From Bacteroidales bacterium (GTDB lineage: Bacteria > Bacteroidota > Bacteroidia > Bacteroidales > ML635J-15): 64,000 nucleotides of DNA. Positions 51,064-56,700 of the stretch are shown here, in pieces. The notes under the pieces were generated by a model that saw only the letters and a program-made list of their open reading frames with translations, did not search any database and was not told where the DNA came from. A program made the translations under genes and the position numbers. Each line of letters begins with the position of its first letter. Position 1 is the first letter of the stretch. Where the stretch lies: assembly GCA_016937855.1 (NCBI GenBank), contig JAFGVU010000003.1:50541-114540 (forward strand), read 5' to 3'.

Positions 51064-54003
51064 TTACTCCTTAAACTTAACATTAAAGGCATTTCTTCCT
51101 AAAAATGTCCTTACTAATCTAAATCCAACGCAGTCAGAGGGTGTTCCATCCCAATTCTCTTCATTTTGAATTTGAATGAAATATGCCCCGCTTGCCCATG
51201 AACCACCTTTTGTTTTATCCGGAGTTATTATCATCTCAGCAGCATTTCCACAAACATCTAAAAGTCCCCATTCATTTTCGGTAAAGCTGGCAATCAGATT
51301 TGGGCTATTGGGATTATACCAATTACTGTCTGATTTATGTTCAGTGAATTCCGAATTTTGATTTTTAACAATTTCATCAAATACAAGTTTATCTATTTGC
51401 TTTGTTTTACTTGTATCTCCTAAAAGTTTATTCTCCTCCCAAATGTTTGTTCTGAATTTTGCAAGAAAAGAACCTTTATAATTTCTAGTATATGGACCAC
51501 CCCAGGCATAAGGAACACTTTGTAAGCCTCCAGCAGCCATATACTCGTATTCTGCTTCAGTTGGCAACCTAAACTCAACATAGTATTCACTGTCTGAACT
51601 TTTTGGATTAGTCATTTTTGTAAACCAAACAGCAAATAGCTTAGCAGCTTTGTGGCTAATTCCTACAACAGGTTCAAATGCGAAAAACGTAACAGGTATC
51701 TCCTTGATATTGTTATCAGAAATAAACTTTTTGGTAAAAGGTAAATATTTGTAGAGGTCTGTTTTGTCAAATTCTTGATTCAATAATACAGTGTCAGTTT
51801 CAAGATTCATTTTTACTTTCCAAAGTGGATCATTGGGTATGCAAATAGCTAAATCTTCATTCATATTGTTTTCTATCAGATAATTTAAGAATATTAACCA
51901 TGTGAAGTTGCAGACTTCTGTTTGCATAGCCCAGAAACCTTGAACAGTTGTTGTAGAGTCTTTATATTTGAAACTTCCTGGTGGTATAAACTTAAATCCT
52001 TCGGGATCAGGTGTGTAGTTGGGCTTATGTGTTACTTCCAAAAGAGAGTAGTCAATTGAAGGCATATTGCGACCGAGAATCTCTATTTTTCTCATTGCTT
52101 TTTCCTGATCTTTTAGTCTAACTCTTACAACATACCTGAATCCTAGAGTGGAGTGCTGCTCGTCAGGGTTTATAAAACATTTTGCAAAAATTGCATTTGA
52201 TGTATAATATACTTTATCAATTTTGCGATTGTCAAACCAGTTTAGCCCTCTTACCATTTTACCATTATGATTATTTCGAGTGCTATCAAAATATTCCTCA
52301 GTTAATTTTAATATTTTATCGCCAGGATTTTTGCTGGTTTCAAGTAATTCAATATTTTTTTGTCTATATGTTGCCCATGTATTAATATAGTCTTCCTTTA
52401 TCCATTCAGAGACATTGCCATTTAGGTTTTTTATTTCAGTTGAATTCCCTGAAACTATATATCTGTCACTAGTTACAAGTGTTGGCTGTTCGAAATCTAT
52501 TCTATCTCCATTATTTCTATTACCAATACTTCTTGTATAATTAAAGTCATTTTTATAAACAAGATCAAGATCGCAAATAATCCGATCTGAACTAATACCA
52601 ATACCTGCAAATCTTAGAACTTCATCTCCTGCAAGCTCCCATTCGTAATCATGGGGTAAGTCAAAGGTAATATGATATAAAATTCCTTGTTCATCTATTC
52701 TAGTTTGCCACATACATGTCATCCAGTCCAAGTAGGCCAAAGCTTGCCAATAACTAATTCCGACTACTGGATACATATTGTATGCCGGATGAAAAAAATA
52801 ATACTTGTTCATTAATGTTTGATATGTGAGTGTGTAGTCAGCTTCCCAACAATCAGTTTTTGGAAACACATTTAAAGTATTGCTCCCAAATTTTGCTTGA
52901 ATTTCGATATTTGGTTGATGAAAAGTGTAAGTAAAATATCGCATATCATCTTCTGATAATGTGCTATCAATATTGATGTCTTCTTTTCCATTGTATTTTA
53001 ACACATAATATAAAAACTCTTTATATTCAATATTACTGACTTCTGTATTTGAAATGTAAAATGGTTGTAATCTGTTGATGTTTTCAGTGCTCAGTTCTAT
53101 TTTGTTTTCATTAAATAGGTTTTCATTAACATAATATCGTAATCCTTCTGGTAGGGATATTTGAGAGGGCTTTTTCTGAATATCAGTTGGGATTTCTTTG
53201 TGCCTTTTTGCTAATGAAATGTATGTGCAGTTTTCGAATCCTTTCTTGAAGGGAAATCCACAATGTACTGGTAGCATAAAGATGTTTTTGTTAAAGTATT
53301 CTTGTAATGATGAATCTGATTTTTCAGGATCATGCAAAAAGTCATTCCATCGAAAAAATTCTGTTGCATAGGAAGTCAATATTAGCTCTCCTGGATAGAT
53401 ACTAACTTCAGGTTGATCTTTTAGTAGTTCTTTTGCATATTCTGGATCAAAGTCTTCATAATACCAAGAGCCATATTTTGGTGTTATAGTATTCTTTTGC
53501 CATGGACTATCAACATCTTTTGACTCAATATCTCCATCTTTAATTTTAGCAGTGTCTTTTATTGTAATATGTTTTGTTTGAGATTGAATGATTTCTTTTT
53601 TTTCTGTTTTGTCTATTTTTAAAGTATCTGTTATGATTTCTTTAGAGGTATCTTTTAAAATAGTAGGAGGGACTAGGTTAAGATTAGGATTATTTCCTAT
53701 TATTGTTACTGGCTTGTTACTTATCTGATTTATAATAAAAATTATCAAAACTGAAACAACTCCAATAATTAGTAATACTCTTAGGTAATAGGAAACAGAT
53801 TTGCTTTTTGATTGAATTAGTTGTGTTATCTTTTCGTTAACCTTGTGCTCTAAACCTTGTTCCACGGGCATTGACATAACATAATTTGCATTCATAGTGA
53901 CAGATTTTTTAATTTCGACATTAGTTTCAAAATCAGAAACAATAGCTTCTAGAAGGAGGCTTTCAAAAGCATCAGGTATCATATCTTTTTTAGTTCTATT
54001 CAT
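51064..54003 (-). CDS. Membrane-anchored 979-aa protein with two FGE-sulfatase/SUMF1-like domains; candidate anti-sigma/signal-sensing partner of the upstream ECF sigma
   Basis: About 70-aa cytoplasmic N-terminus and a single TM helix (YYLRVLLIIGVVSVLIIFIINQI, aa about 72-93). Two modules carry FGE-family hallmarks. Module 1 has FYISNTEVSNIEYKEFL, YPVVGISYWQALAYLDWM, FDLPHDYEWELAG, NGNVSEWIKEDY and GFRYVVRV. Module 2 has WAMQTEVCNFTW, PVVGISHKAAKLFAVWF, FRLPTEAEYEYMAAGG, GLLDVCGNAAEMI, KGGSWAS and GFRLVRT. Its ATG overlaps the sigma gene stop by 8 nt. Confidence 0.7.
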   Translation of the reverse strand: MNRTKKDMIPDAFESLLLEAIVSDFETNVEIKKSVTMNANYVMSMPVEQGLEHKVNEKITQLIQSKSKSVSYYLRVLLIIGVVSVLIIFIINQISNKPVTIIGNNPNLNLVPPTILKDTSKEIITDTLKIDKTEKKEIIQSQTKHITIKDTAKIKDGDIESKDVDSPWQKNTITPKYGSWYYEDFDPEYAKELLKDQPEVSIYPGELILTSYATEFFRWNDFLHDPEKSDSSLQEYFNKNIFMLPVHCGFPFKKGFENCTYISLAKRHKEIPTDIQKKPSQISLPEGLRYYVNENLFNENKIELSTENINRLQPFYISNTEVSNIEYKEFLYYVLKYNGKEDINIDSTLSEDDMRYFTYTFHQPNIEIQAKFGSNTLNVFPKTDCWEADYTLTYQTLMNKYYFFHPAYNMYPVVGISYWQALAYLDWMTCMWQTRIDEQGILYHITFDLPHDYEWELAGDEVLRFAGIGISSDRIICDLDLVYKNDFNYTRSIGNRNNGDRIDFEQPTLVTSDRYIVSGNSTEIKNLNGNVSEWIKEDYINTWATYRQKNIELLETSKNPGDKILKLTEEYFDSTRNNHNGKMVRGLNWFDNRKIDKVYYTSNAIFAKCFINPDEQHSTLGFRYVVRVRLKDQEKAMRKIEILGRNMPSIDYSLLEVTHKPNYTPDPEGFKFIPPGSFKYKDSTTTVQGFWAMQTEVCNFTWLIFLNYLIENNMNEDLAICIPNDPLWKVKMNLETDTVLLNQEFDKTDLYKYLPFTKKFISDNNIKEIPVTFFAFEPVVGISHKAAKLFAVWFTKMTNPKSSDSEYYVEFRLPTEAEYEYMAAGGLQSVPYAWGGPYTRNYKGSFLAKFRTNIWEENKLLGDTSKTKQIDKLVFDEIVKNQNSEFTEHKSDSNWYNPNSPNLIASFTENEWGLLDVCGNAAEMIITPDKTKGGSWASGAYFIQIQNEENWDGTPSDCVGFRLVRTFLGRNAFNVKFKE

Positions 54004-54508
54004 GATTTACCTCCATTTTTAAAGTCATTTTCTCTGTTATTTTCCTTTTTAATCTTGCGTAATAAACTTTTAACTGGTTTTCGGGTTTGTCAATGTATTT
54101 TGCAATTTCACTATATGGCATCTGTTGAGCCTTTAGTAGTAATAGCATGCGTTCCCAGTCTTCAAGTTTTGCAAGTTCTTCATTGAGAAGCTGCAATTTG
54201 GCTGATTCTGTTTGTTCCTGATCGTCATCAGAAAAAGCAGGATGAAGCTTAATGTTTTCCTCCGGGACAATCTCAATTTGTTTTTTTATATCCCGATAAT
54301 GATTCCTAAGATTATTTAGAAACGACACCAAAACAAAGGATGCAAACTTTTCCTCATTCTTAAAATTGTATTTGTCAATTTGTTTGCTAATCTTTTCATA
54401 TGTCTTATAAATTAATTCCCAGGCTGTATCTTCATCTGTTTGCCAGTTTTTTAACGAATATGCAAGAAGTTGTTTCCCATATCTCAGATAAAAGGATTCA
54501 AGACCCAT
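53996..54508 (-). CDS. ECF-type RNA polymerase sigma-70 family factor
   Basis: Region 2-like (FYLRYGKQLLAYSLKNW...DTAWELIYKTYEKI...FASFVLVSFLNNLRNHYRD) and region 4-like HTH (LEDWERMLLLLKAQQMPYSEIAKYIDKPENQLKVYYARLKRKI). ATG 54508 is preferred; the ORF track extends to TTG 54598. Confidence 0.75.
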   Translation of the reverse strand: MGLESFYLRYGKQLLAYSLKNWQTDEDTAWELIYKTYEKISKQIDKYNFKNEEKFASFVLVSFLNNLRNHYRDIKKQIEIVPEENIKLHPAFSDDDQEQTESAKLQLLNEELAKLEDWERMLLLLKAQQMPYSEIAKYIDKPENQLKVYYARLKRKITEKMTLKMEVNHE

Positions 54509-54749
54509 ATCCGGATTCTCTCTGATTATTATGTGAGTTTCTTTCTGCACTTTAATTCGTTTTTGCCCTCTATTAGTTATAACACATTTAGGTAACAAAA
54601 ATATATTAGTTTTATTATTGGCACTAAAGTATTATGAAATTTTTACCGTTTCCTAACTCAACTCAACCGTTAACTCAAAACCACTTTTAATCAGAGGGTT
54701 TTGGCTATAGTTTTGTTCCTAGTAATTAAAACGTTTAAAAATTATAACT

Positions 54750-55226
54750 ATGGACAAAACAATTTTATTAGCAATCGCAATGCTTTTATCCGGAGTACTA
54801 TTGGCTCAGGAGAACAATTTGCAAGTTGTAGGATCTTCAGGAGCAGATTATGCAACTGATAACTATCAAATTTCGTGGACAATCGGGGAGTCTGTAATAA
54901 GTATGCTCCAATCCGATAACTACATTCTTACTCAGGGGTTTCATCAAACATCGGCTACAATTACCAGAATTGATAATGAAATAGAGAACTCTTTTGACTT
55001 GCAGGTGTTTCCGAATCCAACTACGCGCTTTGTAAATATTCAAGCTGGGGGATATGGACTTACCTGTTATTTATATGATATGTCAGGTAGGTTAATCTAT
55101 CAACAAGAATTTGCAGATAGCGAATTGGTTTTAGACCTATCTTATTATGCAATTGGTACCTATCTGCTAAATCTTACAGATGAATCAGGTAGCTCAGTAG
55201 CAAGATTTAAAATAGTAAAGAAATAA
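54750..55226 (+). CDS. 158-aa T9SS-secreted mini-protein (about 60-aa head plus Por C-terminal domain)
   Basis: Signal peptide MDKTILLAIAMLLSGVLLAQ. Head domain with ISWTIGESVI...LTQGFHQ. CTD LQVFPNPTTRFVNIQA...GTYLLNLTDE...FKIVKK. Confidence 0.65.
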   Translation: MDKTILLAIAMLLSGVLLAQENNLQVVGSSGADYATDNYQISWTIGESVISMLQSDNYILTQGFHQTSATITRIDNEIENSFDLQVFPNPTTRFVNIQAGGYGLTCYLYDMSGRLIYQQEFADSELVLDLSYYAIGTYLLNLTDESGSSVARFKIVKK

Positions 55227-55245
55227 ACATTAAAAAATAGAAATT

Positions 55246-56700
55246 ATGAAAAATCTTATGAAAATTAAAACATTTGTAATTGTATTAGCATTACAATTCA
55301 TTGCATTATTTGCAATATCACAAACAGCAAAGTTTAATTATCAGGCTGTTGTTAGAGATAATTTAGGAAACCCGCTGGTAAATGCAATGGTGGATATTGA
55401 TGTGCGTATCTTACAGGGGGCAGTTGATGGAACAGAAGTTTTTGCAGAAAATCATCAAGCAGAAACAAATGCATTTGGTTTAGTTACATTGCAGGTTGGC
55501 TCTATAGAGGATTTAAGTGTTGTAGATTGGAGTGCCGACACATATTTCTTTGAAGTTACGGTAGATGATGAGTTGATGGGAACAAGCCAGCTTTTAAGCG
55601 TTCCTATGGCTGTGTCTGCAACTTATGCAGAAAATTATGATGAGTCTGACCCTTTGTATTCAATGGCACCTGCAAGCATAATAACAAATGATGACATCAA
55701 CGATTGGTCAGCAGCTTATTCTTGGGGAGATCATTCAGGTTTATACCTACCTTCTGACTATACTCCAGAATTAGAAGAAACAGATCCTTTATATAGTACT
55801 GCTCCTGCAAGTACAATCACAAATGATGATATCAGCGATTGGTCAACAGCTTATTCATGGGGAGATCATAGTGGTTTATATTTACCTTCTGATTATACTC
55901 CTGATTATTCTAACCTTGTTAATCTAACTGATGATCAAGTTATTGCAGGAACAAAGACTTTTACAGGAACTGTTGTAGTGCCAACTCCTGTAAACGAATA
56001 CGATGCAGTACCAAAAGAGTATGTTGATGCGCTTTTAGATAGGTTGCTTGAACTTGAATTAGCAACAGGATTAAAAGTTCAGGATATAGACGGCAATCTA
56101 TATAGTACTGTTACACTCGGAACACAGGTGTGGATGCAGGAAAATTTAAAAACAACTAAGTATCGTAACAATACTGATATTCAATTCATAAATGATAATG
56201 CAACATGGAACTCAAATACAGATGCAGCTTATTGCCAAGCGTATCATGTTCCATCAAACGGAGATATCTATGGTAATCTTTACAATTGGGAAGCAGTTAA
56301 TACAGGTATGCTATGTCCAGAGGGTTGGCATGTCCCAACATCTGTTGAATGGCAGGAGCTGATGACATGGTTAGAAGATAATGGATTTGGTTATGGTGGT
56401 AGCGGTGCCGAGGTTGCTAAATCTTTGTCAAGTCAGGATTACTGGTATTCTGGAGGCACAACTGAGGGTACTGTAGGATGGCAAACACATTTAAATAATA
56501 GCTCAACTTTTGATGCCAGACCTGGAGCATTTATGAGAGGCTTTAATGATACGCCAGGATATGAAGTATATTTTTGGGCATCAAATGAATCAAATGCGAC
56601 TAATGCATATAAAGCTTCATGGACTTATTATAGTACAACTCCAAACCTCGGAACAAGTCAAAAGTTTTATGGCTTTTCTGTCAGGTGTCTAAAAGATTAA
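55246..56700 (+). CDS. Secreted chimera: N-terminal beta-domain, tail-fibre-like repeats/collar motif, and a C-terminal Fibrobacter succinogenes major paralogous (FISUMP) domain
   Basis: Signal peptide, then FNYQAVVRDNLGNPL...HQAETNAFGLVTLQVGS. Two 45-aa tandem repeats (DPLYS.APAS.ITNDDI.DWS.AYSWGDHSGLYLPSDYTP). Tail-fibre collar-like IAGTKTFTGTVVVPTPVNEYDAVPKEYVDAL. FISUMP hallmarks are GTQVWMQENLKTTKY, YGNLYNWEAV, CPEGWHVPTSVEWQEL and GFSVRCLKD. Confidence 0.7.
   Translation: MKNLMKIKTFVIVLALQFIALFAISQTAKFNYQAVVRDNLGNPLVNAMVDIDVRILQGAVDGTEVFAENHQAETNAFGLVTLQVGSIEDLSVVDWSADTYFFEVTVDDELMGTSQLLSVPMAVSATYAENYDESDPLYSMAPASIITNDDINDWSAAYSWGDHSGLYLPSDYTPELEETDPLYSTAPASTITNDDISDWSTAYSWGDHSGLYLPSDYTPDYSNLVNLTDDQVIAGTKTFTGTVVVPTPVNEYDAVPKEYVDALLDRLLELELATGLKVQDIDGNLYSTVTLGTQVWMQENLKTTKYRNNTDIQFINDNATWNSNTDAAYCQAYHVPSNGDIYGNLYNWEAVNTGMLCPEGWHVPTSVEWQELMTWLEDNGFGYGGSGAEVAKSLSSQDYWYSGGTTEGTVGWQTHLNNSSTFDARPGAFMRGFNDTPGYEVYFWASNESNATNAYKASWTYYSTTPNLGTSQKFYGFSVRCLKD

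Follow-up and report, generated by a model that had tools for sequence, protein, structure and literature searches.

Membrane-bound anti-sigma factors such as RseA, RsiW and those of the ZAS and FecR types share a simple layout. The gene of the anti-sigma factor follows that of the sigma factor, and the protein consists of a helical cytoplasmic N-terminus of about 70 aa, a single transmembrane (TM) helix and a variable periplasmic sensor. The same order and layout were found for two genes in a 64,000-nucleotide stretch of DNA from a Bacteroidales bacterium (GenBank assembly GCA_016937855.1, contig JAFGVU010000003.1, positions 50,541 to 114,540), hereafter called the window. The first gene encodes an extracytoplasmic function (ECF)-type sigma factor, and the second encodes a 979-aa single-pass membrane protein, here called the partner, whose external part carries two modules with the fold of the formylglycine-generating enzyme (FGE). 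Judged from sequence comparison, the two genes probably form one operon for an ECF-type sigma factor and an anti-sigma factor bound to the membrane, and they belong to a Bacteroidota family for which no published description was found.

As in the classical membrane anti-sigma factors, the ectodomain is modular across the family. Unlike the ZAS, RskA and FecR proteins, the partner has no HxxxCxxC motif and no Pfam match to zf-HC2, RskA or FecR (PF04773). With their defining motifs absent, the system by sequence falls outside the ZAS and FecR families. It also differs from FecR-type cell-surface signalling in that no TonB-dependent transducer is adjacent to the pair; no gene for a TonB-dependent receptor adjoined the pair in any of the loci with listed called genes.

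The external modules have the same fold as FGE/SUMF1 (1Y1E, 2Q17, 6MUJ, 6S07) and match the Pfam family FGE-sulfatase (PF03781). In contrast to FGE/SUMF1, they lack the two copper-binding catalytic cysteines, contain large insertions, are membrane-tethered and are duplicated. A non-catalytic periplasmic FGE fold without the cysteine pair is shared with PorK and GldK, the lipoproteins of the T9SS (type IX secretion system) ring and the gliding track (TIGR03525; 9MZU, 9OTS, 9MYJ, 9P6H). Unlike PorK/GldK, the partner has no lipoprotein signal or lipobox and has a cytoplasmic head and TM helix instead. It has two tandem modules, which summed give 179.9 bits where the equivalog cut-off is 350 bits, and its gene is paired with a sigma gene and is not part of a gldKLMN/porKLMN operon. 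By these sequence measures the modules belong to FGE-sulfatase and are neither catalytic FGEs nor PorK/GldK equivalogs.

A connection between an ECF sigma factor and T9SS biology in Bacteroidota is also known from PorXY-SigP of Porphyromonas gingivalis. According to PMC4800418, the PorY-PorX-SigP cascade is a two-component control of T9SS genes, whereas the sigma factor of the window is paired with a membrane partner. The FGE/GldK-like sensor fold sets the partner apart from the surveyed ECF anti-sigma factors, since it is not mentioned in the ECF surveys searched. Full-text literature searches retrieved no description of an FGE- or GldK-type anti-sigma factor, nor of the conserved upstream element described below. 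The main text of the ECF reclassification paper contains no mention of FGE or sulfatase, and the family may already have a number in its scheme. The sigma/partner family is real and conserved, and is apparently undescribed.

Sigma gene and its junction with the partner gene

Both open reading frames (ORFs) described in the first-pass annotation of this DNA were located on the minus strand. The stop codon of the sigma gene (TAG, 53998-53996) overlaps the start codon of the 979-aa ORF (ATG, 54003-54001), and the junction reads ATGAATAG. An identical 8-nt overlap was present in the two-FGE relatives, and most of the family had other short overlaps. The last codons of the sigma gene (...M-E-V-N-H-E) contain a Shine-Dalgarno-like GGAGG, which was kept in L001, L002 and L004, the relatives with inspected junctions, and was absent from the single-FGE relatives inspected (L006, L007 and L009). 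Bacteroidota are said to make little use of Shine-Dalgarno sequences.

The identity of the first gene as an ECF sigma factor was upheld, and the position of its start was not. The protein passed the NCBIfam model TIGR02937 (sigma70-ECF; cut-off 42.9 bits) with a score of 50.6 bits, the match covering residues 33-191 of the 200-aa ORF. The entry in the ORF list ran from 53996 to 54598 on the minus strand (200 aa). The start was corrected to GTG 54550 because relatives in the alignment start at a conserved K-E-T-[HY]-I-I-I segment that corresponds to this codon, and because the other candidate, ATG 54508, is AAG in the near-identical locus L071. The TTG at 54598 was rejected as a start; it lies inside a conserved non-coding motif, and relatives have in-frame stop codons there. 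Homologues of the sigma factor (n = 299) were mostly about 180-200 aa. The closest named sigma model, PG0214/GFO_1088, gave 28 bits against a cut-off of 130.

Conservation of the pair and exchange of ectodomains

A scan of species-representative genomes gave 60 loci, nearly all from metagenome-assembled genomes. They span Bacteroidales, Marinilabiliales, Flavobacteriales (Fluviicola, Parvicellaceae), Chitinophagales and Sphingobacteriales. In nearly all of these loci, and in all six assembly look-ups, the downstream gene overlaps or abuts the stop codon of the sigma gene and encodes a hydrophobic helix at about residue 65-83. As to whether the two genes are conserved as neighbours, a point raised by the first-pass annotation, the sigma gene was followed in about 55 loci by an overlapping partner gene whose product shares the N-terminal head and the TM helix.

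The first 70 residues of the partner were homologous across unrelated ectodomains. The majority form of the head was N-[IL]-T-D-K-E-[IL]-R-E-L-L-K...L-T-x-K-L-x-E-M-E-A-K-x-A-F...K-E-K-E-L, of which the clade of the window has a recognisable variant. The ectodomains joined to this head were of the FGE class in 31 proteins (with one or two modules), DUF4097 toastrack in 12, and alpha-2-macroglobulin (A2M)/MG2 with CarboxypepD_reg in six. The remaining proteins had an unknown domain with or without OmpA (3) or a second unknown domain (2). In the sigma tree the two-FGE clade was well supported (100/98), the FGE type was scattered, and the switches of ectodomain class require at least nine changes.

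Bacteroidales metagenome assemblies contained about 35 full-length two-FGE relatives, which were 920-1020 aa long. Five two-FGE relatives with 39-82% identity had the sigma gene directly upstream with the same overlap, and different flanking genes; their sigma factors were 184-185 aa as called, and 200 aa in L071. The sigma factor was conserved far better than the partner (up to about 70% versus about 40% identity). Downstream of three sigma homologues at about 50% identity, an overlapping gene of 482-503 aa encoded a single FGE module in each case.

A profile of the head and TM helix matched 207 cluster representatives among 1.84 billion proteins. The match began at residue 1 in nearly all of those listed, and the proteins were about 70-1270 aa long, the shortest probably being fragments. 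No natural fusion of sigma factor and partner was found among the matches. One sub-branch with longer sigma factors (210-232 aa; L055, L061, L063 and L065) had a short ORF of 87-94 aa downstream and no long membrane partner. These short ORFs could be truncated or minimal partners.

At the level of sequence, a conserved head and TM helix, interchangeable periplasmic domains and a translational link to one sigma family are the comparative signature of an anti-sigma factor. This occurrence of the head and TM helix with swapped ectodomains, linked to one sigma family, is the main support for the anti-sigma interpretation given in the first-pass annotation. Its picture of a signalling pair was upheld in part. 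It stood as regards the ECF sigma factor, the single-pass partner and an external non-catalytic FGE fold of the GldK/PorK kind, and was not supported for the proposed promoter sequence, which is treated with the upstream region.

Partner protein and its FGE modules

The partner has a single strongly hydrophobic segment (aa 73-95, with the hydropathy peak of 2.88 at aa 73). AlphaFold2 (AF2) placed the TM helix at residues 70-94, with about 70 residues before it and about 880 after it. This agrees with the short cytoplasmic N-terminus, one TM helix and about 880 external residues described earlier. The AF2 model of the whole partner, made from 28 relatives, had a mean predicted local distance difference test score (pLDDT) of 77 and a predicted template modelling score of 0.72. 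Its layout was three N-terminal helices, the TM helix, a linker, a beta-rich domain and two well-predicted FGE-fold modules. A separate AF2 model of aa 1-100 had a pLDDT of 82.7. There is no Cys in residues 1-72 and hence no HxxxCxxC (zf-HC2/ZAS) motif, as had also been noted before.

The whole partner scored 118.8 bits with PF03781 against the gathering cut-off of 23.3. Each half passed this cut-off alone; aa 290-645 scored 52.7 bits and aa 640-979 scored 73.7 bits, which bore out the earlier count of two FGE-family modules. Identity between the two halves is about 25%. The best NCBIfam model for the whole partner and for each module was the GldK/PorK model TIGR03525, with 103.6 bits for module 1 and 93.4 bits for module 2, which like the overall score are below the equivalog cut-off. 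By sequence, the nearest solved structures were P. gingivalis PorK chains (9MYJ, 9P6H, 9OTS and 9MZU), with true FGEs far behind; for module 1, a profile matched PorK at E = 6e-21. A Foldseek search against the PDB gave PorK first, then FGEs, PvdO and EgtB, with E values of 1e-8 to 1e-10 for FGE.

We take the catalytic Cys pair of FGE to be placed directly after the GGS[WFY] motif, as in FGE sequences. At the positions following GGSW (columns 937-944 of a 28-sequence alignment), no Cys was found in any relative. In module 1 the sequence at this place is RGLNWFDNRKID. The active-site question raised in the first-pass annotation was answered in this way: the catalytic Cys pair is absent, and GldK/PorK are the closest relatives of both modules. 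PorK has been described as a repurposed non-catalytic FGE fold without the catalytic cysteines (PMC12421860). Because none of the 28 relatives has a Cys after GGSW and PorK is likewise a repurposed FGE fold, the modules are predicted to be binding or scaffold domains and not enzymes.

Conserved element upstream of the sigma gene

Alignment of the upstream regions of relatives revealed a promoter-like element, TGTTACC-N4-TGTGTTATA. The exact core GTTACC-N4-TGTGTTA was present as one copy each in 34 of 70 fetched loci, always on the gene strand. It was upstream of the sigma gene except in L052, where the core is followed by the first gene of the operon, a PorP/SprF gene. When up to 2 mismatches were allowed, the element was found in 51 of 57 sigma loci, at a near-constant distance of about 30-55 nt before the sigma start. 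The GTTACC half was invariant, and the second half varied by sigma clade, being CGTTTTA in the A2M clade and, in others, TGGATTA or TTTGTTC. Information content was restricted to the 20 nt of the element. When the window was compared with L004, conservation began sharply at the 5' edge of the element.

An exact search of metagenomes with the 16 specified bases gave 126 matches, of which 21 precede this sigma family and seven lie in one PorP/SprF cluster. The other inspected matches look like chance, some of them being inside unrelated coding sequence. The flanks of 73 loci contained no extra copies before other genes, only tandem copies upstream of the sigma gene; one match to a relaxed pattern in the flank of L069 looks like chance. 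Two tandem copies 50-100 nt apart were seen upstream of the sigma gene in four loci (L022:544-613, L023:4828-4897, L009:3823-3900 and L144:606-726).

The first-pass annotation had suggested a direct repeat, ACCGTT...ACCGTT, as part of the target promoter. This repeat was kept only in L071, which is near-identical throughout, and was absent from L004 and other relatives, and the suggestion was dropped. The element itself is promoter-like and suggests autoregulation and a small regulon, because four copies precede start codons in one metagenome contig. For a sigma-70-family factor, two conserved blocks with only 4 nt between them would make up a non-canonical promoter. The sigma factor may recognise both blocks, or one of them may be an operator.

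Three established promoter readings of the element were rejected. A canonical ECF -35/-10 reading is not consistent with the 4-nt gap, and no conserved block was found at +24 to +30. A sigma-54 promoter (-24/-12 spacing) would need GG and GC dinucleotides, which the element lacks. Only some copies contain the Bacteroidota sigma-A box TAnnTTTG.

Proposed mechanism and alternative explanations

From these comparisons we infer binding and release of the sigma factor by the partner, and recognition of the element by the same sigma factor. The 69-aa three-helix cytoplasmic head would hold the sigma factor at the inner membrane. The periplasmic linker, the small beta domain and the two tandem non-catalytic PorK/GldK-like modules would form a binding or sensing part rather than an enzyme. 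A periplasmic event at this sensor, which may be binding of a ligand or partner, or proteolysis, would lead to release of the sigma factor. The freed sigma factor would then transcribe at least its own operon from TGTTACC-N4-TGTGTTATA.

Several results weigh against this model. The sigma factor of the window is divergent. Pfam Sigma70_r4_2 gave 24.3-24.8 bits, slightly below the gathering score of 25.7, and Sigma70_r2 was not detected in the window's sigma protein, so the two domains are not both found above the gathering score; the protein can be aligned to relatives that do pass, and the relatives bear PF04542 and/or PF08281. The head has no zinc motif. It had no Pfam match in 29 members even at E up to 5, and a Foldseek search of the 100-aa head model against the PDB found nothing. 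No second copy of the element was found in the 64-kb window with up to 2 mismatches or a relaxed second half, and no regulon member was found there. The usual -35/-10 spacing of ECF promoters is 16-17 nt, which the 4 nt between the halves of the element do not fit, and the element could instead be an operator for another protein. The sequencing runs listed for the locus are of DNA, and the sole RNA run has a share of 0.00, so no transcription start was placed.

The element is where an alternative has most weight. Rather than the promoter of this sigma factor, it may be the operator of an unrelated regulator or an RNA element in the 5' leader. This is consistent with the misfit of the gap to sigma-70-family geometry, with the lack of a conserved third block downstream, and with GUUACC being able to pair with a downstream GGUAAC in some copies. 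We consider it rather unlikely. The leader hairpin was inconsistent across copies, with GUUACC paired in 14 of 41 minimum-free-energy folds and a 3' arm that is not conserved. Across orders the element accompanies this sigma family, its second half differs from one sigma clade to the next, and conservation starts abruptly at its 5' edge. In one cluster it stands at a promoter-like distance from four different start codons.

A second alternative concerns the partner. It may not be an inhibitor at all but a co-expressed envelope component, such as a GldK/PorK paralogue that is anchored in the inner membrane and serves for structure or docking, or else a factor that the sigma factor requires for its activity, in the way FecI requires FecR; the sigma factor would then be controlled otherwise. 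The head indeed has no detectable similarity to known anti-sigma domains, the modules resemble the structural protein PorK/GldK, and ECF operons often carry their own targets. Against this, the same head and TM helix are found on unrelated ectodomains, each directly after this sigma family, and a structural role of the ectodomain is therefore hard to accept as the reason for the pairing. No other anti-sigma candidate was found in the operon, either in the window or in the assembly look-ups. We regard this alternative as distinctly unlikely. The Pfam and PDB searches did not place the head in any known anti-sigma family. Under the anti-sigma interpretation, the head would be either a new type of anti-sigma domain or one diverged past recognition.

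That the partner is an active SUMF1/EgtB/PvdO-type enzyme which modifies a periplasmic substrate and merely shares the operon with the sigma factor is in line with its PF03781 match and with the source annotations ('SUMF1/EgtB/PvdO family nonheme iron enzyme' or 'formylglycine-generating enzyme family protein'), but it is highly improbable, as the FGE catalytic Cys pair is absent in 28 of 28 relatives, the SenA and EgtB models gave only 12.9 and 9.3 bits, family scans of the 979-aa protein found no DinB-like or other catalytic partner domain, and the best matches are to the non-catalytic PorK/GldK (PMC12421860).

PorP/SprF-linked loci and a possible link to T9SS and gliding

A PorP/SprF gene is directly upstream of the sigma gene in L046, L052, L070 and one metagenome contig (L099 with L108, and again in L102). 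The element precedes the PorP/SprF gene in L052 and in the contig. The order of the operon in this clade is element, PorP/SprF-family gene, small Cys-rich protein, sigma factor and single-FGE partner, to which L099 adds a DUF4139/DUF4140 protein. The Cys-rich gene is present in L052 and in the contig; in L046 and L070, PorP/SprF alone adjoins the sigma gene.

The contig has four copies of the element, each 20-30 nt before a likely start codon. They are followed by genes for a PorP/SprF-family protein (PF11751, 217 bits), two small Cys-rich proteins and the DUF4139/DUF4140 protein. The last of these genes is directly followed by a sigma gene that belongs to the family (233 bits) and by a gene for a partner with one FGE module.

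The C-terminal sequence is ...CKPxxKK[FY]RxxSCPSF in the sigma-linked PorP/SprF proteins, ...KKYRTVSCPRF in the DUF4139 protein of L099, and ...K[ST]PRYF in the ordinary PorP/SprF proteins near L006 and L073. The Cys at -4 in the Cys-bearing tails recalls the cysteine motifs of SprF and PorG that form a disulfide bond with GldK. In the described case, GldK Cys343 (PorK Cys356) is bonded to the C-terminal cysteine motifs of SprF and PorG (PMC12635249). At the position of PorK Cys356, the consensus of nine aligned single-FGE partners keeps GCxLxNF (GCFLGNF in PorK), and the partner in the PorP-linked contig has Ala. Unlike PorK, module 2 of the window has Ser at this position (Ser845), where 10 of 28 relatives have Cys. 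Cys477 of module 1 was kept in 25 of the 28; hhalign puts it 3 columns off the GC-x-L motif, and its equivalence is ambiguous.

It is possible, although we think it unlikely on present comparisons, that the modules are a GldK/PorK mimic which docks a T9SS or gliding component of the envelope, either an outer-membrane protein of PorP/SprF/PorG type or a PorN/GldN-type partner. The pair would then report the state of the machinery across the envelope to the ECF sigma factor, as FecA signals to FecR. Support comes from the PorP/SprF-linked clade, because its Cys-tailed PorP/SprF gene shares the element directly upstream of the sigma factor and the single-FGE partner. That a GldK mimic docks an outer-membrane protein of PorP/SprF type is an attractive lead rather than a finding. 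No PorP/SprF gene was found within the 64-kb window.

Genes for a 158-aa mini-protein with a T9SS C-terminal domain and for a FISUMP protein lie within 3 kb of the pair in three genomes (window 54750-56700, L071:5318-7255 and L004:9037-11239). They are on the divergent upstream side of the pair in the window and on the convergent downstream side in L004. No copy of the element was found at these genes in the window, L071 or L004, and nothing ties them to this sigma factor. The features of the locus and of its relatives are collected in Table 1.

Table 1. Positions of features in the window and loci of the family referred to in the text. Numbers without a locus name are window positions.
Feature	Location	Strand	Remarks
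ECF-type sigma factor gene	53996..54550	-	184 aa, GTG start; TIGR02937 match and homologue alignment
Single-pass membrane protein gene, candidate anti-sigma factor	51064..54003	-	979 aa
Overlap of sigma stop and partner start	53996..54003	-	8 nt, ATGAATAG; read from sequence
GGAGG, Shine-Dalgarno-like, inside sigma 3' end	54010..54014	-	6 nt before partner ATG
Cytoplasmic head, candidate sigma-binding domain	53797..54003	-	aa 1-69; three helices, 10-23, 29-44 and 51-66
Transmembrane helix	53719..53796	-	aa 70-95; hydropathy and AF2
Low-complexity disordered periplasmic linker	53458..53718	-	aa 96-182; pLDDT about 25; no family match
Small beta-rich domain	53104..53457	-	aa 183-300; strands, pLDDT 74-93; no Pfam match
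FGE-fold module 1, PorK/GldK-like	52069..53103	-	aa about 301-645; without catalytic Cys pair
FGE-fold module 2, PorK/GldK-like	51067..52068	-	aa 646-979; without catalytic Cys pair
Promoter-like element TGTTACC-N4-TGTGTTATA	54578..54597	-	ends 28 nt upstream of sigma GTG
Direct repeat ACCGTT...ACCGTT	54645..54671	+	copies 54645-54650 and 54666-54671; not conserved
DUF4097 toastrack ectodomain loci	L021, L024, L030, L033, L035-L037, L039, L041, L044, L045, L050		
A2M-like ectodomain loci	L043, L049, L058-L060, L069		
Other ectodomain loci	L034, L048, L053; L040, L047		L034, L048, L053, unknown domain with or without OmpA; L040, L047, second unknown domain
PorP/SprF-linked clade loci	L052:3400-7000; L046:790-3264; L070:2930-5342; L099:111-4441 with L108:19-1705; L102:885-3900		
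C-terminal Cys-tail proteins	L052:3402-4436; L070:3832-4923; L046:790-1761; L102:895-1872; L099:2130-3800		

Significance

Pairs of ECF sigma and anti-sigma factors are the main route of signalling from envelope to gene in Bacteroidota, and most of their sensors and signals are unknown. The family described here adds a new short zinc-free cytoplasmic head, and a sensor that uses the fold of which the T9SS ring and the gliding track are made. It also adds a sharply defined 20-nt cis element, which could reveal the regulon in any genome with the family. The sigma factor, head and element could serve as an orthogonal regulatory part for engineering of Bacteroidota. If the GldK-like sensor docks proteins of PorP/SprF or PorN type, this would be the first described feedback from T9SS or gliding to transcription via an anti-sigma factor.

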